A DNA stretch of 43,573 nt from an uncultured Thermotogae bacterium (GCA_964593295.1 CAZQHD010000002.1:1-43573); one strand, 5' to 3'; positions 5,190 to 27,622 are shown, counted from the first letter of the stretch. Notes: generated by a model from the sequence alone, not told the origin. Numbers and translations are program-made.

Positions 5190-5318
5190 TCCTGGAGGGG
5201 TTGAGATGCGGGGACCACAGGCTAGAGGGCTACAGCCTCCTCCGGTGAGGTGGATGGATCATGGGAGGCCGCCCACCCGAGGGTCCTGCCGATCGTGTGA
5301 TACGGCGGCTGCCTGGGG

Positions 5319-11792: not shown

Positions 11793-13052
11793 ATGACGGA
11801 CTCGATGCTGTATGACGTCGCGGTGATTGGTGCGGGTCCCGCAGGGGTGACCGCCGCCATCTTCTCGGCTCGAGAGGGAGCACGTACACTCTTGCTGGAT
11901 CGAATGCCGGATCCAGCACAGAAGATGCTTCTCTCCGGCGGCGGGCGCTGCAACATCCTGCCCAAGGTGGCAGATCCTTCGGACTACGTGACCGACTCAT
12001 CCGCCTATCTCCTGAGAAACATCCTCCTTGCTTGGTCCTTGGAGGAGGTTCGCGCGTTCTTGGAGACGGAGATCGGACTCAAGATCAGAGAGGATCAGGC
12101 CACTGGGAAGCTATTCGTGGCGGGCGGCGGCAAAGAGGCGCGCCAGCGGCTGCTCGCTTCAGCCCAGTCAGCAGGGGTCCGTATCGTGAGGTCCTTCAGG
12201 GTCGAACGACTGGGGGGAGGAGATCCCACCTTCTTCCTGACGGCTCCGGATAAGACCACCCATCGCGCACGGCGTGTCATCCTGGCCTGTGGGGGGCAGT
12301 CGTATCCGCACACCGGAAGTGACGGATCCGGAATCGAGTTGGCGCGTGCGAGAGAGCATCGCATCGTTCCTCCGTATCCCGCGTTGACGCCGCTGATCGG
12401 AGAACGCCCTTCGCATCGCATGCTTGCCGGCATCACGCTTCAGGCGACGGTGACGGCCCGATCCTCGACAGAGGAAGCCACATCTCGAGATGGGTTTCTC
12501 TTCACCCATCGGGGGTACAGTGGGCCGGCGGTACTGAACACCAGTCATGTGGTGGCTCGTGCTCGGCAACGGCGAGAGCCGGTTCAAGTGCTTGTCTCAT
12601 GGACCGACCTCCGCGAAGACGAGTGGAGATCTCTGCTCTCGGAGGGGAAGCGAACGCTTCGGGGAGCGCTCGTCCACGAGATGCCCGCCCGTCTTGCCGA
12701 TCAGCTGTTGGAGGAGAACGCTCTGAAGGATGCTCGGGTCGCGACCCTGGAAAAGGATCGGCGCGAGCAACTGATCCGAGCGCTCACGGCCTATCCGCTC
12801 CCCATCACTCGGAACGATGGCTTCGACTCGGCGGAGGTGACCGGAGGCGGCGTGCATCTGGGCGACGTGGAAGCGAAGACGCTGGAGAGCCGACGCACGC
12901 CTCGCCTCTTCTTCTGCGGGGAGATCCTGGATGCATTTGGCCCGATCGGAGGCATGAACTTCCTGTGGACGTTCGTCACGGGACGGAAGGCGGGGCAGGC
13001 GGCAGGCAGCGACGCGCGAGAAGAACAGAACGACAACAGGAAGGGTTCGTGA
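11793..13052 (+). CDS. HI0933/BaiN-type NAD(P)/FAD-dependent oxidoreductase
   Basis: YDVAVIGAGPAGVTAAIFSAREG dinucleotide fold followed by the family-typical LLSGGGRCN. C-terminal GGMNFLWTFVTGRKAG. I prefer the ATG at 11793 to the track start at 11712. Confidence 0.85.
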   Translation: MTDSMLYDVAVIGAGPAGVTAAIFSAREGARTLLLDRMPDPAQKMLLSGGGRCNILPKVADPSDYVTDSSAYLLRNILLAWSLEEVRAFLETEIGLKIREDQATGKLFVAGGGKEARQRLLASAQSAGVRIVRSFRVERLGGGDPTFFLTAPDKTTHRARRVILACGGQSYPHTGSDGSGIELARAREHRIVPPYPALTPLIGERPSHRMLAGITLQATVTARSSTEEATSRDGFLFTHRGYSGPAVLNTSHVVARARQRREPVQVLVSWTDLREDEWRSLLSEGKRTLRGALVHEMPARLADQLLEENALKDARVATLEKDRREQLIRALTAYPLPITRNDGFDSAEVTGGGVHLGDVEAKTLESRRTPRLFFCGEILDAFGPIGGMNFLWTFVTGRKAGQAAGSDAREEQNDNRKGS

Positions 13053-13062
13053 AACGCTCCTA

Positions 13063-14280
13063 TCAGGTGTGGAGAGATGCGCTTCGAAGCGTGGAGAAGG
13101 CATCCAAGACCTGGCTGAGCTGATCCTCGGTGTGCGTTGCCATCACGCTGGTGCGCAGCAACGACTGCCCTTGAGGCACGGCCGGGGGAATCGCCACGTT
13201 GACGTACACCCCGGCTTCGAAGAGCACGCGCCACGCCTTGAGCGCCTCCAGCGCATCGCCGAGGAACACCGGGATGATCGGCGTGCTGCTCGTCCCGACG
13301 TCGAACCCCAGGGAGCGAAGCCCTTCGCGGAGACGGTCGGCCCGCGCGTTCACCTGTTGGACACGCTCCGGTTCCCGTTCCAGGATCTTCAGCGCGGCGA
13401 GCGCGGCGGCGACGTTGGGTGCCGGAAGGCTGGCGCTGAAGATCAGCGAACGTGCCATGTGGCGGATCCAGTGAATGGGTGCCGCCGACCCGGCGATGTA
13501 CCCGCCGATCGACGCCAGAGACTTGCTGAAGGTTCCCATGAGAAGATCCACACGGTCCGCAACGTTGAGGAGGTGAGCTGTCCCGCGTCCACAGCCGACG
13601 GCGCCGACGCCGTGCGCATCATCGACCATCCATCGCGTGTTTGTCTCCTCGCAAAGGCTGGCGATCTCGGGCAGGAAGGCGATCTCTCCGCTCATGCTGA
13701 ATACCCCGTCGGTGACGAGCAGCTTGCCGGCATCCTCGGGGCAGGCTTCGAGAACCCTGCGAAGGTCCTCCATGTCGCTGTGCTGATACCGAAGCATGCG
13801 TCCCAGCGATAGCCTGCACCCATCCACGATGGATGCGTGGTTGTCTTTGTCGCTGATCACGACGTCTCTTCGTCCGATCAGACCCGACAGCACACCCAGA
13901 TTCGTCTGATAGCCCGTACTGAAGACGATGGCGTCGTCCTTGCCCAAGAAGTCGGCCAGACGCGATTCCAGCTCGCCGTGCAGGCGCAGGGTGCCGTTGA
14001 GGAAGCGTGACCCCGTACAGCTCGTACCGTATTGACGAACGGCGTCCTCTGACGCACGGCGAACCTCGGGATGCATGGTGAGTCCGAGGTAGTTGTTCGA
14101 ACCCAGCATGATCAGGCGACGTCCGTCGATGACGATCTCCGTACCCTCTGCGTGGTCCAGCGGAATGAAGAACGGGTAAAGGTTCATCTCCTTTGCGGCA
14201 CGCGGGCTGGCCGGATACCCCATTCGGATTGCGAACGATGGGTCGGATAGAAAGCTCTCACAGCGGGCAAACAGATCCAC
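13063..14280 (-). CDS. PLP-dependent alpha-oxoamine synthase, serine palmitoyltransferase (Spt)-like
   Basis: LGSNNYLGL, GSRFLNGT, DDAHGVG, the PLP-lysine block GTFSKSLASIGGYIAG, and RSLIFSASLPAPNVAA. By my recollection, GSRxLNGT and GTFSKS match Spt-type enzymes better than BioF or Kbl. The GTG start overlaps the SDR stop by 1 nt. Confidence 0.8.
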   Translation of the reverse strand: MDLFARCESFLSDPSFAIRMGYPASPRAAKEMNLYPFFIPLDHAEGTEIVIDGRRLIMLGSNNYLGLTMHPEVRRASEDAVRQYGTSCTGSRFLNGTLRLHGELESRLADFLGKDDAIVFSTGYQTNLGVLSGLIGRRDVVISDKDNHASIVDGCRLSLGRMLRYQHSDMEDLRRVLEACPEDAGKLLVTDGVFSMSGEIAFLPEIASLCEETNTRWMVDDAHGVGAVGCGRGTAHLLNVADRVDLLMGTFSKSLASIGGYIAGSAAPIHWIRHMARSLIFSASLPAPNVAAALAALKILEREPERVQQVNARADRLREGLRSLGFDVGTSSTPIIPVFLGDALEALKAWRVLFEAGVYVNVAIPPAVPQGQSLLRTSVMATHTEDQLSQVLDAFSTLRSASLHT

Positions 14281-15185
14281 TAGCTTCTCCTTCCGTTACA
14301 CGGAGGCACGCCGTAGTACTTCGAAAGAGCCCACTCAAACCATTGGGACGGCAGAACGCGTTTCAGCTCGACGGCTCCTCGTTGAGATCTCGGGCCGACA
14401 GTATAGCGTACACGTGGAGATCGACACGTCAACACGCGCTCCACAAGTCGCGCAACCGACTCTGGATGGGCGCCGCCACGTTCGTCCTTCTCGACCACCG
14501 AGAGCACATGGTCCTCGGTCTCTCGGTAGATGGAACCCGGGCGAGATGCTTGCACGCGCTTCCGACGGTCGGTGAACTGTGTGTGAACGTCGCCGGGCTC
14601 GATCAGCACGACCTGTACACCGCCCGGAGCGGCTTCCATGCGCATCGCTTCGGTGAGCCCCTCCAGCGCGAACTTGGTCGCACTGTAGAGTCCCTGGTAG
14701 GGAAGGCCGATGCGACCGCCGATCGAGGAGATGTTCAGGATCTTCCCCCGTCCTTGGTGGCGGAGCACTGGAAGTACAGCACGACAAACCCTCATGACTC
14801 CTAGGAGGTTCGTCTCAAGGAGGGCACGAGCCTCTTCGTCCGATGTCTCCTCTACCGCGCCGAACAGCCCAACCCCCGCACAGTTGATGACGCCATCCAG
14901 GCTTCCTGCGTCCTGCAACACACGTTCGACCCCCGCGGTCACCGAGGCGGCGTCATCAACGTTCATCGTCACCATTCTCAGGAACTGGGAGGGGGGAAGC
15001 AGCTGTCGAAGCTCGTCCTCAATGGGCTCGGGGTCGTGACGCGTGGTTCCGAACACAGGGTATCCACGCCGTGCCAGTCGCAACGCGCATGCGCGCCCGA
15101 TACCTGAAGACGCCCCCGTGATCAACAGCACGCCGAGCGTGCGCGCTCTGTGGCGGCGGCTCATGAAGGCTCTTTCTCTCTTCAC
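14280..15185 (-). CDS. classical short-chain dehydrogenase/reductase (SDR)
   Basis: TGASSGIGRA cofactor motif, NISS, and catalytic YSATKFALEGL. The GTG start overlaps the lipocalin stop (GTGA). An alternative ATG is at 15164. Confidence 0.85.
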   Translation of the reverse strand: MKRERAFMSRRHRARTLGVLLITGASSGIGRACALRLARRGYPVFGTTRHDPEPIEDELRQLLPPSQFLRMVTMNVDDAASVTAGVERVLQDAGSLDGVINCAGVGLFGAVEETSDEEARALLETNLLGVMRVCRAVLPVLRHQGRGKILNISSIGGRIGLPYQGLYSATKFALEGLTEAMRMEAAPGGVQVVLIEPGDVHTQFTDRRKRVQASRPGSIYRETEDHVLSVVEKDERGGAHPESVARLVERVLTCRSPRVRYTVGPRSQRGAVELKRVLPSQWFEWALSKYYGVPPCNGRRS

Positions 15186-15730
15186 GGACGCTCGTCCAAT
15201 CCGTCGATCTGCGGAATCCTCTGGAACGCGTCTCGGAGATATCCCTGAGTCTCTAGGCGTTGGAAAATCCCCTCAAGGACCGCCTCCGGTAGGCAGGGTG
15301 TCCGACTGAGAATCCATCCATACCGACGAGAAGGGTGGCCAACGACAGCATACGTGTAGTCCTCTGCCAGATCGATGATCCAGTAAGGGGCGCCGAACCA
15401 CCACAAGCCCAGGAAACGCACGAAACTCACACGCAATTTGGCTGGATCCGATGGATCGGGGATCCATGCGTTTCCCCGGGCGGTGTCTTGGGAGCCCTGC
15501 GCGGTGTAGCACCGGTTGACGACCTCAACTCTTCCGTTGGGCAGGAGGGTGTACTCAGCTGTAGTTCCGGCTGCGCATCTTCGCTCAAACGGCGTAGGGA
15601 TGCTGGCAATCGAGTACCAACGTCCCATGTAGCGAGTCAGATCGACCGACGATACTGTCTGTAGGGCGGGACGCGCCAGCCCTCCCCATCCCAGGCACAA
15701 CATAATCGCGACAAGTGCGCCCGTTCGCAT
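15182..15730 (-). CDS. bacterial lipocalin (Blc-like)
   Basis: Signal sequence, then the lipocalin signature LTRYMGRWYSIASIPTPFE. Also YWIIDLAEDYTYAVVG and GWILSRTP, as in Blc family proteins. Confidence 0.85.
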   Translation of the reverse strand: MRTGALVAIMLCLGWGGLARPALQTVSSVDLTRYMGRWYSIASIPTPFERRCAAGTTAEYTLLPNGRVEVVNRCYTAQGSQDTARGNAWIPDPSDPAKLRVSFVRFLGLWWFGAPYWIIDLAEDYTYAVVGHPSRRYGWILSRTPCLPEAVLEGIFQRLETQGYLRDAFQRIPQIDGLDERP

Positions 15731-15862
15731 ATTCGATCACCTCTTCCCTGTCAGCGTAGCGCCGTGTTCCTCGTGGGGCAAGCATGAAGGAGAGCGTCTG
15801 TCTCCGGAAGGGGCGCTTCCGAACGGGCTCGGGGGGAAGGAGATGACGATGCGATCCGTGAC

Positions 15863-16984
15863 ATGTACCATCGATTCATGAAACGTGCACTCCAGGTGTT
15901 CTTCGTGGGGGTCTCAGTTGCCCTTATTGCCGGCTGTCTGTTCGACATGAACCTGCCCGTGGTCGATTCGGAGGGTGGGGTGTTCGTCTTTCTGTCGGAG
16001 GATGGCTCGTATGCCTCGTTCTCTGAGGGGGGATCTCTCTATCGGTGGCTTGATGGGCACTGGACCCCCTTCCCCCAGGTGTCGGTTGAGAACGCGGGGG
16101 CAGTCATGGCTGTCTCTCCGAACGGCGAGGAGCTTCTCTACGTGGAGGTCCTTTCAGAGAGCCCCTTCGATCCGCCCTTGACTCGAATCTATCATCTCTC
16201 CACAGTCTGTCCGGCCTCTGCTGCGCCCCGTCTTGTGACAGAGACTCGTCAACTGCTGGCTCGTGCCGCGTGGTCGCCTTGGGGCGTCCTTGTTCTGACG
16301 CTGGATGCGGAGGGCGAGGGACGTATCGGACGACTGGATCTCGCGTCTGGCGAGATCGAGACGCTTCGCACAGGGGTTCTATCGTTTATCGTCCGAGACG
16401 ACATCCTCATCTTCTCGGTGGAAGTGTTCGGTGACCTGGGGATCGGGAGGATCGATCGTTGGGATCCCGAGAGGGGGCCCTTCGAGCACCTCGCGTCCGT
16501 CGCCGTCGGACGAGACACCGCGATGATCTTTCGCTCTCTTCCGCACTCCGTTCTCTGGGACGCGACCGAGGATGGATTGGGCATGGCTCTGGCGATCTAC
16601 AGTGCGTCCGTTCTATCTCCTGACCTGCAGGACAGCTCGCCTTCTCTGTATCTTCTCGACCTTGAAGCAGTCTCAGCTCAACAGGTGGCTGTGACGGGCC
16701 TCATGCCCGCGTTCTCCCCGGACGGAACAAGGCTTGCGCTCCTTGAGGGGGCGGACGAAGAGGCCCTCCATGTGGTGGTCGTATCGTGGAAGGATGGAGA
16801 CAGGCAAACGCTGGAGGGAACGGAGGGAGTCCAGACCCTTCACTGGGTAGGGCCGGATCGTCTCTGGGTTGTGCGGGAAGACGAGAACCAGCAGGTGTTC
16901 CTGCTTGAGGTTGAGGTGTCTCCCGGGGGAGAACACAGTGTGATGATCATCCGCGGCCCAGGGCCTGCGCCGCACACTCCATGA
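15863..16984 (+). CDS. lipoprotein, TolB-like beta-propeller repeats, unknown function
   Basis: Lipobox VALIAGC. Repeated SP(N/D)G..L motifs (AVSPNGEELLY, AFSPDGTRLALL). An alternative start is at 15878. Confidence 0.55.
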   Translation: MYHRFMKRALQVFFVGVSVALIAGCLFDMNLPVVDSEGGVFVFLSEDGSYASFSEGGSLYRWLDGHWTPFPQVSVENAGAVMAVSPNGEELLYVEVLSESPFDPPLTRIYHLSTVCPASAAPRLVTETRQLLARAAWSPWGVLVLTLDAEGEGRIGRLDLASGEIETLRTGVLSFIVRDDILIFSVEVFGDLGIGRIDRWDPERGPFEHLASVAVGRDTAMIFRSLPHSVLWDATEDGLGMALAIYSASVLSPDLQDSSPSLYLLDLEAVSAQQVAVTGLMPAFSPDGTRLALLEGADEEALHVVVVSWKDGDRQTLEGTEGVQTLHWVGPDRLWVVREDENQQVFLLEVEVSPGGEHSVMIIRGPGPAPHTP

Positions 16985-17999
16985 TGCGCGTGTAGCTCAA
17001 CTGCGTTCCTTGCTGGTACCAGGGAACCAGCTGTTCGTGAAGCCGACGGTTGAACGGATGGGCCAACGCCGCCTCCAGGGAACCGTGAAGCCGTCGGCCC
17101 ATGTGGAGTGTCTCTAGCTGCGCGGCGTTCCATTTCTGCTCGTAGTGCCCTTCGATCGGTTGGACCACGATCCTCTTGCCCAGGAAGAAAGCCTCACAGA
17201 TCGTCTGAAACCCTGCGGTTCCTACGTATGCGTAGCAGGACGTGAGATCCTGGAGAAACCGCCCGGCCTCCGACACGAAGTGAACGTTGGCCGGAGTCCC
17301 GGGAGAAGGTTGATTGTACCCGTAGATCAGGATCTCGCGTTCTTGGTGGCGCTCGGCATACGACAGGATTGGGTCTAGCCGCCCGGGAAACGAGTGATAG
17401 ACTAACACATGACCATCATCAGATGGAGACAGTTGCTCTATCTCCGGGCGCAGGATGGGCGGAAGACATGAGCTGTCGTGTGGGTAGAAGTGGCAGCTGA
17501 GGATGACGTCCACACCGCTGGAGCACAGTTTGATGGCCAGGTTCGTGTTGAATCTGTCCAGCCGTTCGCCCGGGAGTGGACTGAGATGGTGTCTACGCGA
17601 CATCGCCCAGTTTCCCACACCCACCTTGAACACGGAGGGGGCGACCAGGGGAGATCCGGTGATGGGGTCGAAGTCGCTTATGATAAAGTCCGGGGCGAAC
17701 TGCGTGATCAGTTTGTGCCCCTGGCGAAGGCTCTTCAGGAGTCCGGGCATCCCACCAACAAACGACGAAGCGGTCTTCCGTTTGGAGATTCCGCCCATGC
17801 CGTCGTCCGCCATCTCGAATCCGGACATCCGCTCATGACGAGAGGTTCCCACGGCGTCGAGGAAGAACGAGGGCGGATCATGGCGCCCGGAGATGATGAC
17901 CAGCATCTCGTGTCCGTCGGCGTCGAACCATGGCTTGAGCGCAGCGAACCGTGCCAGATGCCCGCGACCCGTGCTCTGTACGCCATAAACGATCCTCAC
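16947..17999 (-). CDS. GT-B glycosyltransferase, MJ1255/VC2487 (TIGR00661)-like
   Basis: N-terminus RIVYGVQSTGRGHLARFAAL... is typical of this MurG/UGT-related family. C-terminal GTAGFQTICEAFFLGKRIVVQP is a nucleotide-sugar binding half. The GTG at 17999 is preceded by GGGAGGGGA. Confidence 0.65.
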   Translation of the reverse strand: MRIVYGVQSTGRGHLARFAALKPWFDADGHEMLVIISGRHDPPSFFLDAVGTSRHERMSGFEMADDGMGGISKRKTASSFVGGMPGLLKSLRQGHKLITQFAPDFIISDFDPITGSPLVAPSVFKVGVGNWAMSRRHHLSPLPGERLDRFNTNLAIKLCSSGVDVILSCHFYPHDSSCLPPILRPEIEQLSPSDDGHVLVYHSFPGRLDPILSYAERHQEREILIYGYNQPSPGTPANVHFVSEAGRFLQDLTSCYAYVGTAGFQTICEAFFLGKRIVVQPIEGHYEQKWNAAQLETLHMGRRLHGSLEAALAHPFNRRLHEQLVPWYQQGTQLSYTRIMECAAQALGRG

Positions 18000-18183
18000 C
18001 CGTCCCCTCCCGTGACACACTCGTTCCCATGAGTGTCCGAAGAATCGTAGAGCCCGTCAATCCTAAAGCTGCAGGTTCCCGGCGAGAAGGCTTCTATGGA
18101 TGCCGCTGTCTCGCACTGCTTGCAGTAGCGCCCCCGGGAGGGAGAATAGACAGTGGAAACGACCAAGGAGGGGCTGTTCAATC

Positions 18184-19068
18184 ATGCATCACTTACGATC
18201 GCTAGGGTTTGGCGTGTTCGGTCTGGGGGTTCTTCTTGTCGGGCTGATCGCGGTGGGGGAGACGAAGTCCAACCAGGAGCTTCTGGCCGAGGCGGATCTT
18301 GCCTACGTTGGACGCCTTTGTCCCGAGGGCATGGAGGAGGCGGTCGTGCGCTATGAAGCCGTGCTCGATGGCATCGATTCTCTCTCCGTGTCGGAGCAGA
18401 CCAGTCTCCTGAACCGCCTGTCTCAACTGTACTATGAGTCCACCACGTTTACGATCGATGACGTGCCGGGGGACCGACAGCGATTCGAGAGGGGAAGAGA
18501 GTACGGGCTGCAGAGCCTGAGGCTCAACCCGGCGTTTGTCGAGGCCGAAGACCGTGACTTCAAGGAGGCGGTGTCCTACGTCACGGACCTCGCCGCGCTC
18601 CACTGGACGGCCAGCAACTGGGGAAAGCTGTTGGGAATGACAAGCTGGGTCGAGATTCTCTTCCAACCAGGGCTGGTGGCTCAGGCGGGGAGGATCCTCG
18701 TGTTGTTCGAGCGCGTTGTGGCGCTGGACCCAGGCTTCTGGGGAGGCAGTGCGTGCAGCTCCCTTGGGTCACAACTGGTGATGTCTCCTGCGTTTCTGGG
18801 CGGAGACCGGCCGCGTGGACTCGCCCTGATGGAGCAAGCGATCGACCTGGATCCGTCGTACCTGTCGAACCGAGTCATCTTTGCCGAATACGCGGGGTAT
18901 GCCTACGACACGTTCGGGAATCGAGGCAAGCCTGCCGACGTGCAGCTCATCCGGCAAGAACTCAGCGTCGTCTTGGAGGCTGAAATCGGAGACTGGCCGT
19001 TCTGGAATGCCCGCGCCAAGGAACGAGCGGCCTACCTCCTGGAACAACTCTCACCCGATTCGTCCTGA
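18184..19068 (+). CDS. secreted all-helical (TPR-like) protein, possibly TatT family
   Basis: The ATG at 18184 follows AAGGAGG. N-terminal hydrophobic anchor. The C-terminal block FWGGSACSSLGSQLVMSPAFLGGDRPRGLALMEQAIDLDPSYL..VIFAEY resembles the TatT (TRAP-associated TPR) family as I remember it. Confidence 0.45.
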   Translation: MHHLRSLGFGVFGLGVLLVGLIAVGETKSNQELLAEADLAYVGRLCPEGMEEAVVRYEAVLDGIDSLSVSEQTSLLNRLSQLYYESTTFTIDDVPGDRQRFERGREYGLQSLRLNPAFVEAEDRDFKEAVSYVTDLAALHWTASNWGKLLGMTSWVEILFQPGLVAQAGRILVLFERVVALDPGFWGGSACSSLGSQLVMSPAFLGGDRPRGLALMEQAIDLDPSYLSNRVIFAEYAGYAYDTFGNRGKPADVQLIRQELSVVLEAEIGDWPFWNARAKERAAYLLEQLSPDSS

Positions 19069-19121
19069 CACGCGAGCGATTCGCCGAACGGCAAGAGCCC
19101 GGGGCACCAGGGCCTTCATCT

Positions 19122-19886
19122 CTACTCCCCCCATCCTGTCTTGCCGATCTGAGTGAGTCGATTGAGGCAGGGTACGAGAGATTGCATCGCGATCCGGGCA
19201 TGCCGTGCCAGTCGAACCAGCGAGGCCCACTGGCGTGGATGCAGAGATGTGTCGATGAGAAGACGGACTCGGGATGCCTCGGCGCTCAGAACCCGACGGG
19301 TACTCTCCGGCATCGTGTCTTCCAGACGGTCTGAGACCGCGCGCACCGTGAGGAATGGAACGCTGTGGGACGCGGCGATGGTGGCCAGCCAGAAGCTCTC
19401 CATGTCGACCACGTCGGCGCAGTGCTTTGCGGCAAGAGACTGCTTCTGCTTGGGCGTGGCGACCAACCTGTCGGTGGTCAGTCCTCGGAGCCTTCGGACG
19501 TTCCCGGCGCACCCCGTGATGGTTTGCTCAGCCCATGCAATCAGCTGCTCGTCGAGCGCGTGATCCTTGATCGTTGGTCTCCCCGACGTTTCTTCTTCAC
19601 ATCTTACGCTCGTGTACAACGCGATCTCTCCGATGCCCACACCGTCCACCAGCGCGCCGCAGAATCCGAAGGAGACGATCCGGTCGATCCTCTCTTGAGC
19701 CATTGCGCAGGCCACGGCGTTCTGGACTCGATCACGGCCGATTCCTGTTTGGATCAGCAACACCGGATCATCACGATTCGCCGCCCGATACGATGGGAAC
19801 GGCAGGTGCGGATCCCTCCTGTTGAGGCGAAGGGCCTTCTTGACCGGGAGAACCTCCTCACGAACTGCACCGACCAGCAGGATCAT
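19122..19886 (-). CDS. PNP/UDP-phosphorylase-fold nucleosidase, HpnG/MTAN-like
   Basis: MILLVGAV..., TGIGRDR, SFGFCGAL and VVDMESFWLA are the conserved blocks of the MTA/SAH nucleosidase and hopanoid-associated phosphorylase fold. The ATG at 19886 overlaps the sulfotransferase stop (ATGA). Confidence 0.7.
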   Translation of the reverse strand: MILLVGAVREEVLPVKKALRLNRRDPHLPFPSYRAANRDDPVLLIQTGIGRDRVQNAVACAMAQERIDRIVSFGFCGALVDGVGIGEIALYTSVRCEEETSGRPTIKDHALDEQLIAWAEQTITGCAGNVRRLRGLTTDRLVATPKQKQSLAAKHCADVVDMESFWLATIAASHSVPFLTVRAVSDRLEDTMPESTRRVLSAEASRVRLLIDTSLHPRQWASLVRLARHARIAMQSLVPCLNRLTQIGKTGWGE

Positions 19887-21028
19887 GACGAGACCTCGGA
19901 CGATGGATCGCGAAGCGTGTACCCCCATGGGGTGAACGCAAATGCCCACTGACGGTTGACCTCGGCGATGACCTCGCGGCTCAGAGGATACTGGTTTCTC
20001 CGATACCCGGAAACCGATTCGATGTACTGTTCGAAGTAGGGGCGTGCTTTCTCGAACCCGGGAAGCTGCAGTTCCCGGTAGATCCTTGCCAGTTGGGCCA
20101 ACGGCGCTGATTCCAGGTCTTCGTAGCGAATCTCAACATACCGGTTTGCGGGGATGGAGGACCGGTCCTCCAGAAGGCGTTGCATGAGCTTTCGATAGAA
20201 GAGCAGAACATTGAACGGGATCTCCTCCGGGGCGATCCGTTGGAGCTGTGACTTCGGGAGCACCGTCCTGTGCATGTGTACGGTCGAGAGAAACACCTCG
20301 TAGGGATCACGATGGATGTGGATGAATCTGGCTTCGGGGAACAGCTTCAGCAGGGTCTTGATCCGCCCGCTGTGTGCACAGTTCTTGATGACCAGTCTTC
20401 GGCCTTGGCTTCTCACGGTGGCTTTACGGAGGATCTCCTGGTAGACGGCGCACCAACGCGAGAGTGTCGCTTCCGGGAGGCGGTGGAACAGTACGTACCG
20501 ATCGAAAAACCATCGAGCCTGTCGGGGAAACGTAAACGCGTGCAGGAAGGAGTAAGGAGACATGGAGGCCAGAGCAAACTCGTCCTCTTGAGGCGCGTCA
20601 AGGGCGAGAGGGATGTTGTCAATCAGGCGTGTCGGATAGTGTTTGGCCGCGTGCCTTGCCAGCAGGGGCATGAGTCTCCGTTCCCCCGAAAGACAGAAAC
20701 CCGGGGCCATGGCCTGGAAGGTAGAGACGGATCCGACCGCGGGATCCCTGCACAGGAGGTTGTGCAGATGGGTGGTCCCGCTTCGCCAGTGTCCGAGGAT
20801 GAAGAGCGGTTGGGGATGAACCGCGGTATGTCGAACCAAGCGACCGTATCGGACGCGTTCCCATACGCGAAGCGGAGCGGTGAGCAGCGTGGTCAACGTC
20901 ACGAAGGCTGCCCGTAGAAGGAACGGTCTGTCTACGCTCGGGTGCTCTCGAAGCAGGCGCACCCAGCTGGAGAAGGATCCCAGCGCGATCGGATGCTCTG
21001 TATGTCTTCGGTGTTCGCGTTTCGACAT
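19883..21028 (-). CDS. PAPS-dependent sulfotransferase family protein
   Basis: 5'-phosphosulfate binding loop GHWRSGTTHLHNLL, and a 3'-phosphate binding region ARFIHIHRDPYEVFLS. The ATG overlaps the upstream stop by 1 nt (TGATG). Confidence 0.85.
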   Translation of the reverse strand: MSKREHRRHTEHPIALGSFSSWVRLLREHPSVDRPFLLRAAFVTLTTLLTAPLRVWERVRYGRLVRHTAVHPQPLFILGHWRSGTTHLHNLLCRDPAVGSVSTFQAMAPGFCLSGERRLMPLLARHAAKHYPTRLIDNIPLALDAPQEDEFALASMSPYSFLHAFTFPRQARWFFDRYVLFHRLPEATLSRWCAVYQEILRKATVRSQGRRLVIKNCAHSGRIKTLLKLFPEARFIHIHRDPYEVFLSTVHMHRTVLPKSQLQRIAPEEIPFNVLLFYRKLMQRLLEDRSSIPANRYVEIRYEDLESAPLAQLARIYRELQLPGFEKARPYFEQYIESVSGYRRNQYPLSREVIAEVNRQWAFAFTPWGYTLRDPSSEVSS

Positions 21029-22731
21029 CAGCGCACTCTCCCAGGAGGGTGGGATTCATCGTGTGCGTAGGGCATTGCGCTGGCCTGCGACGCATGGAGA
21101 GGCGCGGCGGCCTCTCGAAGCATCACCAGACCAAAGATGGTCGTGGAGTAGGCGATCCCTCCGTTGGGGTGAAGGAAGACGGCTCCTGCCCAGTTATTGA
21201 ACCCCAGCCCGCGGCCAGCCAGCCGTCGGTAGACTGTCTCGCCGGTGTGGAAATCGATGGCGATCCAATACCAGTGAGTCACCGAACACTCTTCACTTCG
21301 CCAGTACATGTACACCAGACCATTGCCCAACGAGAGCTTGAACACACAGAGGCTCTTCTCGGAGCTCGACCAGACTTCACGGCAGGAGAAGCTCCCGTCG
21401 TCTTCTCTGAGCACGTCCACACGCGTCAGCCCCGGCTCCGGACGTGAACGAGGGAATCGATGGTGTCCCCAGTTGTTCTCCACCAGAATCGAGTACCGCC
21501 CCCGTCCCACCCCCTGAGTATCCGCATGTTCAAAGCACGCAACGCTGACATCGGTTCCACTCTTGCCCTGTTCGAACAGAGGGAAACGGCAGAGGATCTG
21601 TCCGTCGTGGCGACGCAACAAGAGAAGATGGATCCTCGGCTCTGCGTTGTCGGTGATGGCCACCAATCCATCGAGGTCTCCCATCAACGAAACCGAGGTC
21701 CCCGACCCTCGAGCAATGTGTCCTGGTTTCTTGGCGCCGCCGCGATCATACGGAGTTCGCCACTCGATGATCACCTTGCCCTCGTCTCCGACACCGAACC
21801 GGTACATGGCATGATCGGAGACGATGAACGCGCCGTCCTGGCCCACCGCGAACGAGTTCTCGATGGTTTCTCCCTCGAGTTGAAGTGTTCGAACGTCTCC
21901 GGACTCGATCTCCACGGTCCCGACCATCCCCTCTGTGGAGGCAAACCAGTAGTACTGACCGCCCCAATCGGGGAGAACCCATGCAATACTGTCCCTCTTC
22001 GGCCAACGCATCGGTACGACCGAATCCTGGAGGTCGTAGGTCCTCACGACCTCGAAGCTCGAACTGTCGTCAGAGATTCGGATCACCTCGATCGTGTTCT
22101 GTGTCGTGGGGACGACCGCGCGGTCTTCGTGGTCCAAGTAGAAGTACATCCCGGCCCCGATATACTGCCAGGGCATGATCCCCTGCAGCCACCAGTACCA
22201 CGGCCGAGAGGGAAGAGGGTGCGTTGCCAGCAACTCCAGCGAGTGGTCATCGATGAGATCGAGTCGGAACCGCCTGCCGTTGCTGAACACGGCGACGATG
22301 CGCCCGAGGCGATCGTGGGTGAGGGTGCCGTATCCGCCGAACCCTTCGGTTCGAGAGACGATCTCCATGTCGATGCCCAGCGGGCCCGCGGCCGTGTAGG
22401 TGTCGCTCATGGACGCATCACAGTGCATGTTGTTGACCCCTCCGGAGGCCATGAACGGGTGCTTGGGGACCGGCATGTGGGGGATCGGCACGGGCTTGGT
22501 CTCCGGGATGGACCGGAGGACCTCTGAACAGGAAGACGTGTCCGCGTTGTCTCTGCCGAACAGAGCGCTCCACGCCACGCGGAATGCCTCGGAAGGATAG
22601 AGGATGTTGGGCGAGATCGGACGGACAGTGTCTGAGGGCTGGGATGTACAACGCGAGAGGGCGAAGACGAGGAGAACGCAGCCCACGATGATGGCGGGAA
22701 CGAACCAACCTCTTCGCTGAACAGAGTTCAT
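21028..22731 (-). CDS. membrane-anchored extracytoplasmic protein, probably beta-rich/propeller-like, family not recognised
   Basis: MNSVQRRGWFVPAIIVGCVLLVFALS anchor, then about 540 residues rich in W/Y/G beta-strand patterns (GGVNNMHCDASMSDTY, WYWWLQGIMPWQYIGAGMYFYLD, YYWFASTEGMVGTVE). The track's N-terminal extension to 23037 is Arg/Ser-rich and runs into the divergent gene, so I place the start at 22731. Confidence 0.55.
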   Translation of the reverse strand: MNSVQRRGWFVPAIIVGCVLLVFALSRCTSQPSDTVRPISPNILYPSEAFRVAWSALFGRDNADTSSCSEVLRSIPETKPVPIPHMPVPKHPFMASGGVNNMHCDASMSDTYTAAGPLGIDMEIVSRTEGFGGYGTLTHDRLGRIVAVFSNGRRFRLDLIDDHSLELLATHPLPSRPWYWWLQGIMPWQYIGAGMYFYLDHEDRAVVPTTQNTIEVIRISDDSSSFEVVRTYDLQDSVVPMRWPKRDSIAWVLPDWGGQYYWFASTEGMVGTVEIESGDVRTLQLEGETIENSFAVGQDGAFIVSDHAMYRFGVGDEGKVIIEWRTPYDRGGAKKPGHIARGSGTSVSLMGDLDGLVAITDNAEPRIHLLLLRRHDGQILCRFPLFEQGKSGTDVSVACFEHADTQGVGRGRYSILVENNWGHHRFPRSRPEPGLTRVDVLREDDGSFSCREVWSSSEKSLCVFKLSLGNGLVYMYWRSEECSVTHWYWIAIDFHTGETVYRRLAGRGLGFNNWAGAVFLHPNGGIAYSTTIFGLVMLREAAAPLHASQASAMPYAHDESHPPGRVR

Positions 22732-22810
22732 GAACAGGAGGATACCCTGAGGCTGACTCTCGATCACGTGACCGTGAGATCGTGCTCTTGTCATCCGAGG
22801 GTTGAGTCGG

Positions 22811-22851
22811 CGGAGCGCTGAACGGCAAGATGAACCCCGCCGAGCGCTCCG
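22811..22851. promoter_or_regulatory. perfect 9-bp inverted repeat in the divergent control region
   Basis: CGGAGCGCT (22811-22819) and AGCGCTCCG (22843-22851) are exact reverse complements separated by 23 nt. The repeat sits midway between the divergent starts at 22731 and 22921. Confidence 0.25.
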
Positions 22852-22920
22852 AAGAAGGTTGCTGGAAGAGGACCTGCCATGGGATGATACCCGTACACGA
22901 TTCAGAGAGAGAGGGAGAGG

Positions 22921-24591
22921 ATGGCCACACAGGACGGCTTTGTGCTTTGGTTCACCGGTCTGTCTGCGTCGGGGAAGACAACCTTGGCCCAGGCGGTGGA
23001 GAAGGAGATGATGGCACGCGGGATGCCGCGGGTTCAACGCTTGGACGGTGATGTTGTACGCGAGGACCTGACAAGAGACCTGGGCTTCAGCAAGGAAGAC
23101 CGGGACGAGAACATCCGGCGGATCGCGTTTGTCGCGCAGCTACTCTCCTCCCACGGTGTGGCCACGCTCTGCTCCTTCATCTCACCGTATCGAGAAGCGC
23201 GAGCGCACGCTCGCACTCGATGCCGCCGCTTCATCGAGGTGTTTGTGGACTGCCCGATGGACGTTCTTCTCGAAAGGGACCCCAAAGGGCTCTACAAAAA
23301 GGCGATGGCCGGGCAAATCCGAGGGTTCACCGGAGTTGACGATCCCTATGAGGCTCCGGAATCTCCGGAGATTGTTGTCCACACGGCACGCCAAACAGTC
23401 GAGCAGTCCACGCAGGTGATCCTCTCATACCTGGAGACGCACGGTTTGCTCGGAGCCCAACAGTCTGGCGTAATGAGCTCTGTACGGCTCGTGGATCGGA
23501 CGGTGTCAGATCGCCGGAGACTCCGACAGGCGGATGGCCCTGTTCTGGTACTGTCTGACGTGCAGGTGAGCGAGCTAGACGCTATCGGATGTGGGTTGTA
23601 CAGCCCGCTGACAGGGTTCATGACCTCCGCGGAGTACGAGCGCGTGATCTCTTCGATGAGGCTTCCGGATGGCTCCGTCTGGACCGTCCCGATCACGCTT
23701 CCCGTGCCGAATGAACTGCGCCAGGGTATCCGATGCGGGATGGTCCTCACGCTTTGCGATGAGCAGGGGGAGACACATGGTCTTCTAGAAGTGAAGGACA
23801 TCTTCTCCCGCGATCTGAAGCACGAAGCCCAGTCAGTCTATGGGACAACCGAAACGATCCATCCCGGTGTCGCCCGACTGATGGAGGAGCCGGAGGCGGT
23901 GGTGGGCGGAGACATTCACCTCCTTCAAAGATCAGGCCCATCGCAGCATCCCCTCAACATGGATCCTGAAGTCACGAGAGAGCTGTTCTCCCAGAGGGGA
24001 TGGAAGACGATCGTGGCGTTCCAGACACGAAACCCCATTCATCGAGCGCATGAGTATCTTCTCAAGTGTGCGCTGGAGATCTTCGACGGGTTGTTCGTCA
24101 ACCCTCTGGTGGGAGAGACTCAGAAGGAGGATCTCCCGGTTGATCTACGGATGCGCTGCTACGAAGAGGTCTTGCAGGGCTACTTCCCGAAGGAGAGGAC
24201 GATCCTAGGAACCTTTCCCGTTCCCATGAGGTACGCCGGACCGCGAGAGGCTGTGCATCATGCCTTGTGTCGAAGAAACTACGGGTGCACGCACATGATT
24301 GTGGGGCGTGACCATGCGGGGGTGGGTGGCTACTACGGGACCTACGACGCACAACGAATCTTCGATCGGTTCACTCCGGAGGAACTGGGGATCACCCCGC
24401 TATGCTTTGAGCACGCGTTCTACTGCAGGGTGTGCGGCCAAGTGGCCAGCAAGAAGACATGTCCACATGACGCAGAACACCATCTCTTCCTCTCCGGGAC
24501 CAAGGTGCGGGAGATGCTCAGTGGCGGGACTCCGCTTCCCGATGAGTTCACACGGGCGGAGGTGGCCGAGATTCTGCGCGGGGCGCTCTAG
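22921..24591 (+). CDS. bifunctional adenylylsulfate (APS) kinase / sulfate adenylyltransferase (PAPS synthase)
   Basis: The N-terminal APS kinase has FVLWFTGLSASGKTTLA and SFISPYRE. The C-terminal ATP sulfurylase has FQTRNPIHRAHEYL and VGRDHAGVG. GAGGGAGAGG precedes the ATG. Confidence 0.9.
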   Translation: MATQDGFVLWFTGLSASGKTTLAQAVEKEMMARGMPRVQRLDGDVVREDLTRDLGFSKEDRDENIRRIAFVAQLLSSHGVATLCSFISPYREARAHARTRCRRFIEVFVDCPMDVLLERDPKGLYKKAMAGQIRGFTGVDDPYEAPESPEIVVHTARQTVEQSTQVILSYLETHGLLGAQQSGVMSSVRLVDRTVSDRRRLRQADGPVLVLSDVQVSELDAIGCGLYSPLTGFMTSAEYERVISSMRLPDGSVWTVPITLPVPNELRQGIRCGMVLTLCDEQGETHGLLEVKDIFSRDLKHEAQSVYGTTETIHPGVARLMEEPEAVVGGDIHLLQRSGPSQHPLNMDPEVTRELFSQRGWKTIVAFQTRNPIHRAHEYLLKCALEIFDGLFVNPLVGETQKEDLPVDLRMRCYEEVLQGYFPKERTILGTFPVPMRYAGPREAVHHALCRRNYGCTHMIVGRDHAGVGGYYGTYDAQRIFDRFTPEELGITPLCFEHAFYCRVCGQVASKKTCPHDAEHHLFLSGTKVREMLSGGTPLPDEFTRAEVAEILRGAL

Positions 24592-24624
24592 GCAGCGGGA
24601 GGGGGTCCCCGACCGAGAACGGAT

Positions 24625-26067
24625 TCAGGGATGTGCGATCTGATGCACCTTGAGGAAGTTGGTCTTGCCTCCTCCACCGACCGGGAGCCCTCCGGTGAGG
24701 ACGATCCAGTCCCCGGGACAGGCATCATCACGCTCGATCAGCATCCGTTCGGCCACCTGCAACAACGCCTCAGTGGAGTCGAAGGAAGGGACGAGTACGG
24801 GGGAGACCCCCCACACCAGGGCCAACTGACGGTGTACGGACGGCTGAGGGGTCAAGGCTACGATGGCTTGTCGAGGACGCATCCGGGCGATCTGGCGGGC
24901 CGTGTACCCAGACCATGTTGCAGTCACGATGAGACGGGTCTGTAAATCCGTGGCGATCTGAACGGTGGCGTCACTGATCGCGTCGGTTACCGCGTGAAGT
25001 CGGTGTGTCCCGGGCGTCGCCGTCATCTGCTTGAGCATCCGATCTTCGACCACCGAGGAGATCTCCCGGATGATGGATACCGCCTCCACGGGGTAGCGGC
25101 CGATGGCCGTCTCCGCGGACAGCATGACGGCGTCTGTTCCGTCTAGGATCGCGTTGGCCACGTCGCTGGCCTCGGCGCGGGTGGGGCGGGGACTGTCGAT
25201 CATGGACTGGAGCATCTGTGTCGCCGTGATCACCGGGATCCCCGCATGGTTGCACTTCTGGATGATCTCCTTTTGGTGGAGCGGGACGGTCTGTGGGGAG
25301 AGCTCTACACCCAGATCCCCCCGGGCCACCACGATCGCGTCGACCCGTGGGAGGATCTCGTGGAACCGTTCCACGGCGCAGCGAGACTCAATCTTGGCTA
25401 GGATGGCGATACCGGCAGCGACCTCTCCTTGGAGCCGGAGAACACGTCGCAGATCCTCGATGTCCTCTGGAGACCGCACGAACGAAAGCGCGATGAAGTC
25501 CACGCCTTGCGACACCGCGAAAGCTGCATCTGCATGATCCTTGTCGGTCATCGCCGACTGCACAGGGATCCCATCCGGCAAGGCGACGCCTTTGTTCGAG
25601 GAGAGAGGACCACCGAGTAGAACTCGGCAGATCAACACCTCTGGGCGGACCTCTTCGACGACCAACTCCACGGCCCCGTCGTCCAGCATCAGGCGTTGCC
25701 CCGTTCGCATGTGGGCGATGATCTCCGGATGAGGCAGGGGCAGGACGTGGTGTGTCCCATCTGCGGAACGGGACGTCAGGCAGACCCAGTCTCCGATCGA
25801 GAGTTCCATCGGCCTGACGAGCTCTCCCAACCGGATCTTGGGGCCCTGCAGATCCGCCATGATGGCAATGACCGCACGCTCCTGCTGCGCAGCCTCGCGT
25901 ACTTGTTCGATCATCGATCGGTGCTCGTCATGACTCCCGTGAGAGAAGTTGACGCGGGCAACATCCATCCCTTCGCGGATCAGACGACGGAGGACGGAGA
26001 GATCCTTCGTTGCCGGACCCATCGTGCACACGATCTTCGTCTTTGTGTCGGAGACACTGAGCACCAT
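24625..26067 (-). CDS. pyk: pyruvate kinase
   Basis: KTKIVCTMGPAT, VARVNFSHGSHDEH, IMADLQGPKIR, VVARGDLGVELS, ITATQMLQSM, and a C-terminal allosteric domain. Confidence 0.95.
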   Translation of the reverse strand: MVLSVSDTKTKIVCTMGPATKDLSVLRRLIREGMDVARVNFSHGSHDEHRSMIEQVREAAQQERAVIAIMADLQGPKIRLGELVRPMELSIGDWVCLTSRSADGTHHVLPLPHPEIIAHMRTGQRLMLDDGAVELVVEEVRPEVLICRVLLGGPLSSNKGVALPDGIPVQSAMTDKDHADAAFAVSQGVDFIALSFVRSPEDIEDLRRVLRLQGEVAAGIAILAKIESRCAVERFHEILPRVDAIVVARGDLGVELSPQTVPLHQKEIIQKCNHAGIPVITATQMLQSMIDSPRPTRAEASDVANAILDGTDAVMLSAETAIGRYPVEAVSIIREISSVVEDRMLKQMTATPGTHRLHAVTDAISDATVQIATDLQTRLIVTATWSGYTARQIARMRPRQAIVALTPQPSVHRQLALVWGVSPVLVPSFDSTEALLQVAERMLIERDDACPGDWIVLTGGLPVGGGGKTNFLKVHQIAHP

Positions 26068-26076
26068 ACGATCCTC

Positions 26077-26931
26077 CTACCGATCAGGGTCGACCAGAGT
26101 GTACACCGCGCAGTCGGCCAACGGTCGGAATCCGACTCTCTGGTAGATCCGGTTCGATGTGGGGTTGGACAGATCTGTGTACAGCGTACAGAAACGCGAT
26201 CCCTCGGAGAGGAGGTGGCGACAGAGCGCGGACACACAGGCAGTGGCGTACCCCCGTCTACGAGCTTCTTGGGGTGTGTAGACCGGAGCAATTGTCCTTC
26301 CGTTCGACGTTCCGCGGCCGCTGCCAACCATGGAAACCGGTGATCCGTCCTCCCAGACGGCGAGTCGTCCATGTTGGATGAACTGAAGAACGCGATCCTG
26401 CAGATCCGGAGGAGGGGCATCATGGGTTGCTTCCTTGATAAAGGCGGCCCACCAACCGGCCAACAGAGGAACATCCTCTGCCGTCGCCCAGCGCATGCTC
26501 CCGGCAACCGTCGCTGCCTGTTGCACATCGGTCAGGCAGTACAGTCGTTGAGACATACGCAGCGTGAAGAACTGCCCCGTCTCCCGCTGCCATGCTCGGC
26601 AGAATTGCTCCACCAGGGAAGTGGCACCATGGACCGTAGGAAATCTGTGTCCGATGCCGGCCATGTGTTCCGCCACCCGCTCCAGCGCATCGCGTCGCTC
26701 GGGATCGCCATGAAGGATGATCCCATGCGGAGGCGTATGCGCCACCGCAGCCACCAGACGATCCTTGTCCTGAGCGGACAGGAAGAACGGAGGCTCCTGG
26801 CCGTATGGATGCCCGTCTCGCACGCGCAGCGCCACGCTCAGGATCAAGCTGTGTTCGGCCTCGTGTCTGAGAAGATCGGCCTCAACGACCTCCAGGAACT
26901 CCTCTGCCCTTGGCGTTGTCATGATCCTCAT
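26077..26931 (-). CDS. GNAT family N-acyltransferase with an N-terminal accessory domain
   Basis: The C-terminal acyl-CoA binding core is IAPVYTPQEARRRGYATACVSALCRHLL...NPTSNRIYQRVGF. The start overlaps the CYTH gene stop by 4 nt. Confidence 0.8.
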   Translation of the reverse strand: MRIMTTPRAEEFLEVVEADLLRHEAEHSLILSVALRVRDGHPYGQEPPFFLSAQDKDRLVAAVAHTPPHGIILHGDPERRDALERVAEHMAGIGHRFPTVHGATSLVEQFCRAWQRETGQFFTLRMSQRLYCLTDVQQAATVAGSMRWATAEDVPLLAGWWAAFIKEATHDAPPPDLQDRVLQFIQHGRLAVWEDGSPVSMVGSGRGTSNGRTIAPVYTPQEARRRGYATACVSALCRHLLSEGSRFCTLYTDLSNPTSNRIYQRVGFRPLADCAVYTLVDPDR

Positions 26932-27449: not shown

Positions 27450-27622
27450 GTTCGCTCCTTCCGGGCATCGGCCGCTTCTTTGCGGTGGGATTTCTGTCCG
27501 TCACCTGAGCGGTTCCTTCTGCAGTGCCCAAGAACGTTTCCGTGATGAGACAGCCTGCCTCGACGCTGCGACTCCTCGACCCCGACGGGAATCAGACTCT
27601 CCCGTTCTGTGCAGTCTAGCGG

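Follow-up and report, generated by a model that had tools for sequence, protein, structure and literature searches.

Introduction

Several described bacterial systems resemble parts of the locus considered here, the interval 13063-24591 of a 43,573-nucleotide stretch of DNA deposited as an uncultured Thermotogae bacterium (GCA_964593295.1, CAZQHD010000002.1:1-43573; the whole stretch is referred to below as the window), which carries a predicted sphingoid-base operon, module A, and a set of genes for predicted lipid sulfation from 3'-phosphoadenosine-5'-phosphosulfate (PAPS), module B. In the BT_0411-BT_0416 cholesterol sulfotransferase cluster of Bacteroides thetaiotaomicron (PMC9417993), PAPS-supply genes adjoin a Sulfotransfer_3-type enzyme of ∼370-380 amino acids (aa) acting on a polycyclic lipid alcohol, as we propose for module B, but there CysDN and CysC, not a Sat-CysC fusion, make the PAPS, the beta-propeller, TatT-like, nucleosidase and glycosyltransferase (GT) partners are all lacking, and the acceptor is host cholesterol rather than an endogenous lipid; the likeness is one of taxon and gene context of Bacteroidales homologues, not of identity to BT_0416 itself. 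The mycobacterial Stf enzymes (Stf3 of sulfomenaquinone synthesis; structures 2Z6V and 2ZQ5) are likewise PAPS-dependent and act on membrane lipids or glycolipids, but the similarity is very distant and the window locus has no Cyp128-type hydroxylase. The hopanoid side-chain pathway of hpnH, hpnG and hpnA, with hpnN and shc (TIGR03470, TIGR03468, TIGR03466, TIGR03480 and TIGR01507), meets the locus in another way: relatives of the window carry HpnH, HpnA and squalene-hopene cyclase (SHC) above the model cut-offs in or next to the sulfotransferase operon, and the window itself has an HpnG-like nucleosidase in the matching operon position. To our knowledge, no described hpn cluster includes a sulfotransferase, PAPS synthase, propeller or TatT-like gene, nor, going by our literature searches as well, is any sulfated hopanoid known as a product of biosynthesis.

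Module A compares most directly with the sphingolipid enzymes of Bacteroidota (the serine palmitoyltransferase, SPT, of Sphingobacterium multivorum and the 3-ketosphinganine reductase BT_0972; PMC9278070), in which an alpha-oxoamine synthase (AOS) and a short-chain dehydrogenase/reductase (SDR) likewise provide the first two long-chain-base steps; the window differs in having the pair in one operon with a lipocalin, with no ceramide synthase, acyl carrier protein (ACP) or acyl-ACP synthetase gene nearby. The capnine/sulfonolipid pathway (SulA/CapB and CapC; PMC9304779) follows the same AOS-then-SDR logic to a sulfur-containing sphingoid analogue in outer membranes, but its sulfur enters as cysteate and not via PAPS and a sulfotransferase; the window AOS is nearer to SPT (388 bits) than to SulA (257) or CapB (255), and no cysteate synthase gene lies in the interval. 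We found in the literature no report of sphingolipids or SPT in the deep-branching anaerobic Bipolaricaulota, and no published description of the polar-lipid classes of this phylum. The Bipolaricaulota are deep-branching and almost uncultured, and have a toga-like outer membrane. It is to this phylum (Candidatus Bipolaricaulota, or Acetothermia) that the nearest database matches of the window proteins belong, going by hit names. The title "uncultured Thermotogae bacterium" is also given by NCBI to GTDB-representative metagenome-assembled genomes (MAGs; loci L005, L007-L009 and L015) whose proteins are 57-67% identical to those of the window, so taxon labels need caution.

We put at roughly even odds (about 0.5) the reading that the interval places side by side, in this lineage specifically, two envelope-lipid modules with independent transcription, A for sphingoid bases and B for hopanoid-linked sulfation. 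The initial annotation of this stretch had proposed one pathway to a sulfated (glyco)aminolipid. Its parts list and its lipid flavour stand, the latter borne out by the operon of Spt-like, KDSR-like and lipocalin genes, by a lipid-type sulfotransferase fed with PAPS and by a layout that is kept in the nearest relative. The unifying single pathway is poorly supported, since the two modules are never in one operon, and the sulfotransferase, nucleosidase and GT-B glycosyltransferase travel with HpnH, HpnA and SHC.

Results and Discussion

The sulfotransferase operon and its partners

A gene map built from an open reading frame (ORF) listing and from Pfam and NCBIfam scans divides the interval into six transcription units on alternating strands, which shows that it is not one operon, and unrelated genes flank it on both sides. 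Promoter-like sites were absent from a scan of positions 12500-27600, and terminator-like sites were no more frequent than in shuffled sequence; operon calls therefore rest on gene overlaps and strand. Module B (16947-24591) consists of a PAPS synthase, a propeller-sulfotransferase-nucleosidase operon, a TatT-like protein and a GT-B glycosyltransferase. The stop codon of the propeller gene overlaps the sulfotransferase start as TGATG, read directly from the sequence, and an ATG at 19886 overlaps the sulfotransferase stop as ATGA (tcATGAtc); this ATG, and not the called start at 19949, is probably the nucleosidase start. The two overlaps make the propeller, sulfotransferase and nucleosidase genes one translationally coupled operon.

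The sulfotransferase matches PF13469 with 131.1 bits (threshold 27) and has a conserved N-terminal hydrophobic helix. The motif GHWRSGTT (residues 79-86) and the pair R240...S248 are invariant across 25 homologues, and from general knowledge of the fold we take them to be the 5'-phosphosulfate and 3'-phosphate sites of PAPS binding, respectively. Homologues throughout the phylum are 55-79% identical, and the solved homologues are the mycobacterial Stf-type structures 2Z6V and 2ZQ5 alone (50 and 42 bits). The divergently transcribed fusion protein is predicted to make PAPS from family scores that exceed curated cut-offs (TIGR00455, 229.4 against 138.7 bits; NF003166, 488.9 against 387; TIGR00339, 380 against 322.95), and its Pfam matches are PF01583 (208 bits), PF14306 (139) and PF01747 (314).

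Conservation of these arrangements was assessed in related loci, cited below by L numbers, of which 80 were gathered from GTDB genomes with a profile and 80 from metagenomes with the window sulfotransferase as query. The window proteins, together with relatives' HpnH, HpnA and SHC, were mapped onto the loci by tblastn, and the counts given here summarize 87-89 non-redundant loci at a minimum of 50% identity, with denominators that vary with the flanking sequence required for each feature. In 13/42 loci a PAPS synthase gene is found no more than 4 kb upstream of the sulfotransferase. The sulfotransferase's most constant partner is the 567-aa propeller protein (Unk567), encoded directly upstream in 57 of 59 loci, and the TatT-like gene is convergent with and downstream of the operon in 52 of 71. 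Neighbour clustering of the 80 GTDB loci gave no universal sulfotransferase partner outside the Bipolaricaulota and Dehalococcoidia.

Unk567 has no sequence match in Pfam, NCBIfam or the PDB, and its more than 1,600 database relatives are all labelled hypothetical (homologues are 57-83% identical). An AlphaFold2 model (pLDDT 77.6, pTM 0.81) is all-beta, with ∼8 blades behind an N-terminal membrane helix, and a Foldseek search with it returned generic WD40, BamB and PQQ-like propellers alone. The PAPS-independent arylsulfate sulfotransferases are also periplasmic propellers, with six blades. We considered such an identity for Unk567 and dropped it, as the model has ∼8 blades, the Pfam scan gave no family for the protein and the 50 best Foldseek matches include no enzyme of that kind. 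The Unk567 gene of a complete Bipolaricaulota chromosome adjoins an APS-kinase gene, with no sulfotransferase in the 10-kb flanks. The true start of the TatT-like protein is probably the internal MHHLRSLG near 18184, and no component of a tripartite ATP-independent periplasmic (TRAP) transporter lies beside its gene in the window or in any relative examined. The GT-B protein scores 122.5 bits with PF13528 (cut-off 25) and 92.2 bits with TIGR00661, below the cut-off of 195.9. Its gene is downstream of the sulfotransferase in 6/39 loci with at least 6 kb of downstream sequence, and its homologues are confined to the window's hopanoid-linked sulfotransferase clade and L087.

Hopanoid genes at related loci

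The likeliest acceptor for module B, in our view, is an extended hopanoid (ribosyl- or polyol-type, and possibly glycosylated) and not a sphingoid base, because the other members of the window's clade sit in sulfotransferase-HpnH-HpnG-HpnA operons and more distant relatives lie beside an IspH-SHC-HpnG-HpnH block. The fullest arrangement is that of L004, which runs PAPS synthase / propeller-sulfotransferase-HpnH-nucleosidase-HpnA / ... / TatT / GT-B, and in which the HpnH and HpnA of the sulfotransferase operon score 429.6 bits (cut-off 225) and 441.9 bits (cut-off 367.65). Operons of the same type are found in L095, L098, L101, L114, L158/159 and L161, and a version lacking HpnH in L003, L110 and L085/86, the last being the window's closest relative; a 4-nt overlap joins the nucleosidase gene to the sulfotransferase stop in L003 and L085. 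Two loci, L124 and L121, have the IspH-SHC-HpnG-HpnH block starting ∼1 kb past the sulfotransferase on its downstream side, and SHC lies ∼1.8 kb away (L124: SHC 872.5 bits against a cut-off of 431, HpnH 388.7 bits), and this is the gene set reported for the terpenoid cluster, with SHC and adenosyl-hopene transferase, of the first cultured Bipolaricaulota strain, J31 (bioRxiv 10.1101/2025.11.21.689855). Apart from this preprint, our literature searches gave no directly relevant work on hopanoids in the phylum.

Across the survey, 45 loci have at least 3 kb of downstream sequence, and 13 of these encode HpnH, HpnA or SHC within 7 kb of the sulfotransferase. In a quick neighbour-joining distance tree the window sulfotransferase falls in a contiguous group of 15, and in 14 of its 14 relatives there HpnH, HpnG or HpnA is encoded directly downstream. 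The window's nucleosidase (PF01048, 67.7 bits) has as its best NCBIfam match HpnG, TIGR03468 (107.6 bits), followed by futalosine hydrolase (59) and MTAN (58). Comparison with L085/86 shows a clean loss of the HpnA-like gene from the window, which leaves a gap of 53 bp (19069-19121) between the nucleosidase and TatT genes where relatives have HpnA.

Hopanoid genes also occur beside sulfotransferase homologues in Alphaproteobacteria. In one MAG (L067:9815-14702) the sulfotransferase homologue is directly followed by an HpnA-like gene and faces HpnN, and the alphaproteobacterial HpnN beside a sulfotransferase homologue scores 900 bits against a cut-off of 751.85. In another MAG (L063:10004-20485) the homologue abuts a canonical hpn cluster with HpnA, GT2, squalene synthase-like genes, HpnE, HpnG and HpnH. 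In the literature searched we found no mention of a sulfotransferase associated with a hopanoid cluster.

Sulfotransferase homologues in other settings

Bacteroidales homologues are 32-34% identical to the window sulfotransferase over nearly the full length and lie in a run of DASS symporter, cysC, cysD, cysN and sulfotransferase genes, which is the layout of the B. thetaiotaomicron BT_0411-0416 cluster (PMC9417993). This layout, like the Stf3-type name that homologues carry in automatic annotation, is a precedent within the family for acceptors that are polycyclic or isoprenoid lipids. Two cultured Alphaproteobacteria, Rhodoblastus acidophilus DSM 142 (L057:305-4882) and Skermanella aerolata (L061), have a homologue beside a ∼1,085-aa fusion of fatty acyl-AMP ligase (FAAL) and thioester reductase and an ABC transporter, a context that points to a fatty alcohol or aldehyde-derived lipid as the acceptor. 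In a Kiritimatiellae MAG contig (JAPKCZ010000227.1; L058:673-4138) an AMP-ligase fragment, a fatty-acid desaturase, an AOS 29% identical to that of the window and a sulfotransferase homologue (34%) run in the same direction, a candidate sulfated aminolipid cluster in another phylum. The family has the look of a sulfotransferase scaffold for lipid alcohols, with the neighbouring genes determining the acceptor, which makes hopanoid and aminolipid readings both chemically reasonable; between them, the weight lies with the window's own operon and clade.

Module A: a probable long-chain-base operon

The three genes of module A (13063-15730, minus strand) form an overlapping operon, in which the lipocalin and SDR genes overlap by 4 nt and the SDR gene overlaps the start of the Spt-like gene by 1 nt. 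The Spt-like enzyme (PF00155, 202 bits) finds its top NCBIfam match in the CFB-type serine palmitoyltransferase NF047600 (475.4 bits, cut-off 640), ahead of bioF (383 bits) and Kbl (369). Among solved structures its nearest homologue is the S. multivorum SPT (3A2B/8GUH; 388 bits, 47.7% identity over 367 positions), followed by Sphingomonas SPTs (282-296 bits), KBL (260), SulA, CapB, BioF (200), ALAS (185) and CqsA (102), and its GTFSKSLAS motif, which contains the lysine that binds pyridoxal 5'-phosphate (PLP), aligns with the counterpart in 3A2B. Identity across the phylum is 65-78%. The SDR (adh_short, 160 bits) has NF049977 KdsR as the top match among 217 SDR models (273.7 bits), a model presumably built from BT_0972, and the lipocalin (PF08212, 150.7 bits) has an N-terminal signal sequence.

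The SDR gene is directly upstream of the AOS gene in 9/9 related contigs examined. The lipocalin gene accompanies the pair in L085/86, L002 and L110 and is missing from L001, L087, L090 and L091; it is co-operonic with SDR-AOS in four lineages. No tdh, bioA, bioB, bioD, ACP or N-acyltransferase gene accompanies the pair in the relatives' contigs examined. Judged by these family matches and their context, module A is probably a long-chain-base operon of sphinganine type. In L091 (3327-5491; GCA_028278555.1) a DncV-like nucleotidyltransferase and a patatin phospholipase, a defence pair of the cyclic-oligonucleotide-based antiphage signalling system (CBASS) type, lie 2.5 kb upstream of SDR-AOS.

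Linkage of the two modules

Distances between the AOS and sulfotransferase modules can be given for the window and for six relatives in which both are placed on the same contig. They are 5.6 kb in the window, 6.8 kb in L085, 6.8 kb and inverted in L090, 7.8 kb and inverted in L009, 11.2 kb in L089/91, ∼15 kb in L002/3 and ∼20 kb in L001/4. L085/L086, the closest relative, with an Spt-like protein that is 91% identical, has the compact arrangement too. Four genes on alternating strands separate module A from the sulfotransferase operon in the window, and the intervening genes vary among relatives, including genes for a histidine kinase, NUDIX, MscS and HD proteins, a GNAT, a nitroreductase, an OpuA ABC transporter, a toxin-antitoxin pair, PadR and a MacB ABC transporter. 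The initial annotation held that its single pathway would be refuted if the sub-clusters were unlinked in related genomes, and mostly unlinked they are: of 37 loci with 7 kb or more of downstream sequence, 3 have AOS within 10 kb of the sulfotransferase, an operon is never shared, and AOS is in none of the 17 loci that have at least 9 kb on both sides. L090 and L009, the other two AOS-linked loci, fall outside the window's group in the sulfotransferase tree. As unrelated EamA and Opu transporter genes are also kept in the neighbourhood of both modules, eroding ancestral synteny is a sufficient explanation for their proximity, and regional proximity is much weaker evidence than operon membership.

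Weighing the readings

Several observations weigh against the reading of two modules, sphingoid-base and hopanoid-linked. HpnH, HpnA and SHC are all absent from the 43.6-kb window, as searched by tblastn with relatives' proteins, and for this reason a sulfated-hopanoid acceptor is something that we infer from the relatives. The nucleosidase falls below the HpnG cut-off (107.6 against 187.1 bits) and has 65% identity to its L085 orthologue, where the flanking genes reach 79-92%; since it diverges faster than its neighbours, the hopanoid-type branch may be decaying, or under relaxed selection, in this genome. The tree that defines the window's group carries no support values, and our literature search found no sulfated hopanoid or sulfated bacteriohopanepolyol. 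At roughly 70% of the related loci the sulfotransferase has no hopanoid gene in reach, as would be expected if the acceptor of module B were neither hopanoid nor sphingoid but a glycolipid, an S-layer or toga glycan, a fatty alcohol or a quinone, with the hopanoid genes mere neighbours. Such an acceptor would suit the partners that do not vary, the exported propeller and the TatT-like protein; it would suit the Dehalococcoidia, where the sulfotransferase-propeller pair has PAPS-pathway genes, a PHP phosphatase and a 3-beta-hydroxysteroid dehydrogenase/epimerase-type enzyme nearby and no HpnH or SHC within 10-kb flanks; and it is also in keeping with the FAAL-thioester reductase neighbours in Rhodoblastus and Skermanella, with the naming of homologues as Stf3-type menaquinone sulfotransferases in Joint Genome Institute (JGI) annotation by automatic KEGG Orthology (KO) assignment, and with a GT-B and an epimerase that are typical of glycan pathways too. 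We nevertheless regard it as rather unlikely, given that hopanoid genes are co-operonic with the sulfotransferase in every one of the relatives in the window's clade, with the 4-nt overlaps of L003 and L085, that HpnH shifts between the SHC cluster and the sulfotransferase operon as a single hopanoid pathway predicts, and that alphaproteobacterial homologues lie inside hpn clusters.

The proximity of the modules bears on the pathway of the initial annotation, in which a long-chain base made by the Spt-like enzyme and SDR is glycosylated by the GT-B and sulfated by the sulfotransferase, the fusion protein supplying the PAPS, and the lipocalin, TatT-like protein and propellers export a sulfatide-like or otherwise sulfated aminolipid. 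AOS is 5.6-20 kb from the sulfotransferase wherever both are on one contig, the compact order is kept in L085/86, the Kiritimatiellae contig with AOS directly upstream of a family sulfotransferase indicates that the family can pair with aminolipid genes, and contexts elsewhere point to varied lipid alcohols; an aminolipid acceptor thus has these points in its favour, to the cost of a hopanoid one, and persistent regional proximity keeps the single pathway alive at low probability. We judge it unlikely, because operons are never shared, because orientation and intervening genes vary and the EamA, Opu, histidine kinase and MscS genes are retained too, as general synteny would have it, and because the sulfotransferase, nucleosidase and GT-B co-vary with HpnH, HpnA and SHC. 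The Dehalococcoidia, moreover, keep the sulfotransferase-propeller pair and nearby PAPS-pathway genes without AOS. The interval also contains no N-acyltransferase gene that we could find, in agreement with the initial annotation's remark that none is obvious there, and its candidate ceramide synthase, the GNAT at 26077-26931, finds no backing: this 284-aa protein, with a C-terminal GNAT domain only, lies in an apparent CYTH-GNAT-pyruvate kinase operon (24625-27449, minus strand), has no NCBIfam or PDB family match and has a homologue in 0/171 related loci, which is absence of support and not counter-evidence. Module A, for its part, would belong to amino-acid or cofactor metabolism if its AOS were of BioF type or a glycine C-acetyltransferase of KBL type, and if its SDR acted as a dehydrogenase of threonine or of something else. 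The AOS does fall below every SPT equivalog cut-off (including NF047599, 402.7 against 500 bits, and NF047603, 323.5 against 670), the SDR falls below that of KdsR (273.7 against 400), the AOS is proportionally nearest to the bioF cut-off (383 of 426), JGI pipelines name its homologues 8-amino-7-oxononanoate synthase, and its degree of conservation across the phylum is housekeeping-like. Against this, the AOS is ∼130 bits nearer to a characterized SPT than to KBL or BioF, its partner is a classical SDR with KdsR as top match and not a zinc-type or GalE-type threonine dehydrogenase, no relative has bioA, bioB, bioD or tdh beside it, and a secreted lipocalin shares its operon in four lineages. 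A KBL or BioF reading of the enzyme is accordingly unlikely, and an amino-acid or cofactor role for the module decidedly improbable.

Genes of the interval and its surroundings

The features of the interval are collected in Table 1. All of the genes named in the initial annotation are present where it placed them, and its family-level calls hold, but it left out Unk567, and the lipoprotein that it called a propeller shows a weak propeller signal (Gmad1/TolB matches); the nucleosidase start as called is probably too far upstream. A homologue of this lipoprotein was found in L085/L086 alone, at 77% identity, and it is thus lineage-specific.

Table 1. Genes of the interval 13063-24591 and the basis of their assignment.
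Feature	Position	Strand	Remarks
AOS-family PLP enzyme (Spt-like)	13063-14280	-	Best NCBIfam match serine palmitoyltransferase; last gene of module A operon
KDSR-like classical SDR	14280-15185	-	Best NCBIfam match 3-ketodihydrosphingosine reductase; module A
Secreted lipocalin (Lipocalin_2, Blc-like)	15182-15730	-	Pfam; first gene of module A
Lipoprotein, maybe propeller-like	15863-16984	+	Canonical lipobox LIAGC; weak propeller signal, E ∼1e-3
Glyco_trans_1_3 / MJ1255/VC2487-type GT-B	16947-18020	-	Pfam, NCBIfam
TatT-like exported helical protein	18100-19068	+	PF16811, 43.6 bits against cut-off 26.5
PNP_UDP_1 nucleosidase, HpnG-like	19122-19949 as called; probably 19122-19886	-	Pfam; last gene of sulfotransferase operon
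Sulfotransfer_3 sulfotransferase, PAPS-dependent lipid type	19883-21028	-	Pfam
Unk567, 567-aa exported/membrane-anchored beta-propeller	21028-22731	-	Conserved orphan; first gene of sulfotransferase operon
PAPS synthase, APS kinase-PUA_2-ATP sulfurylase fusion	22921-24591	+	Pfam; divergent from propeller-sulfotransferase operon

Elsewhere in the window, a 778-aa protein (38847-41183, minus strand) has the unusual architecture of a NosD-like right-handed beta-helix fused to a C-terminal OpuAC glycine-betaine-binding domain, and there are several PKD-domain proteins (4584-6638 and 28426-29424).

A proposed mechanism

Under the two-module reading, the Spt-like enzyme would join a long-chain acyl thioester to an amino acid, for which serine is the likeliest candidate, and reduction of the 3-keto product by the SDR would give a long-chain base of sphinganine type; binding or trafficking of the resulting lipid may fall to the secreted lipocalin. 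In module B, the Sat-CysC fusion would supply PAPS, from which the membrane-associated Sulfotransfer_3 enzyme would move sulfate onto a lipid hydroxyl. The proposed substrate begins as adenosylhopane, made by an HpnH encoded elsewhere and deadenylated by the nucleosidase, after which the hopanoid side chain would be sulfated and the product passed to the exported carrier proteins.

A wider proposal is offered tentatively, as less likely than not: that Bipolaricaulota and some Alphaproteobacteria make sulfated, possibly glycosylated, extended hopanoids by means of a BT_0416/Stf-type sulfotransferase co-operonic with HpnH, HpnG and HpnA and acting on the ribosyl- or polyol-type side chain, and that the propeller and the TatT-like carrier deliver this anionic lipid to the toga-like outer membrane, where it could sit beside sphingoid lipids derived from the Spt, KDSR and lipocalin genes, in an envelope without classical lipopolysaccharide.

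Implications

On the best reading, module A would be a known sort of sphingoid-base operon in a new phylum, and module B a system of PAPS-dependent lipid sulfation with two orphan exported partners. If module A does make long-chain bases, the range of sphingoid lipids grows by one more early-diverging lineage of anaerobic diderms. Should hopanoids be what module B sulfates, its product would be a new class of bacterial anionic membrane lipid and a biological source of sulfur-bearing hopanoids, of relevance to geochemists who use hopanes as biomarkers. Two conserved orphan families, that of the propeller and that of a TatT-like protein not associated with TRAP transporters, would also gain a role through module B. 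The ∼380-aa sulfotransferase family as a whole adjoins hopanoid, fatty-alcohol and aminolipid pathways, and these contexts can guide the discovery of its substrates.

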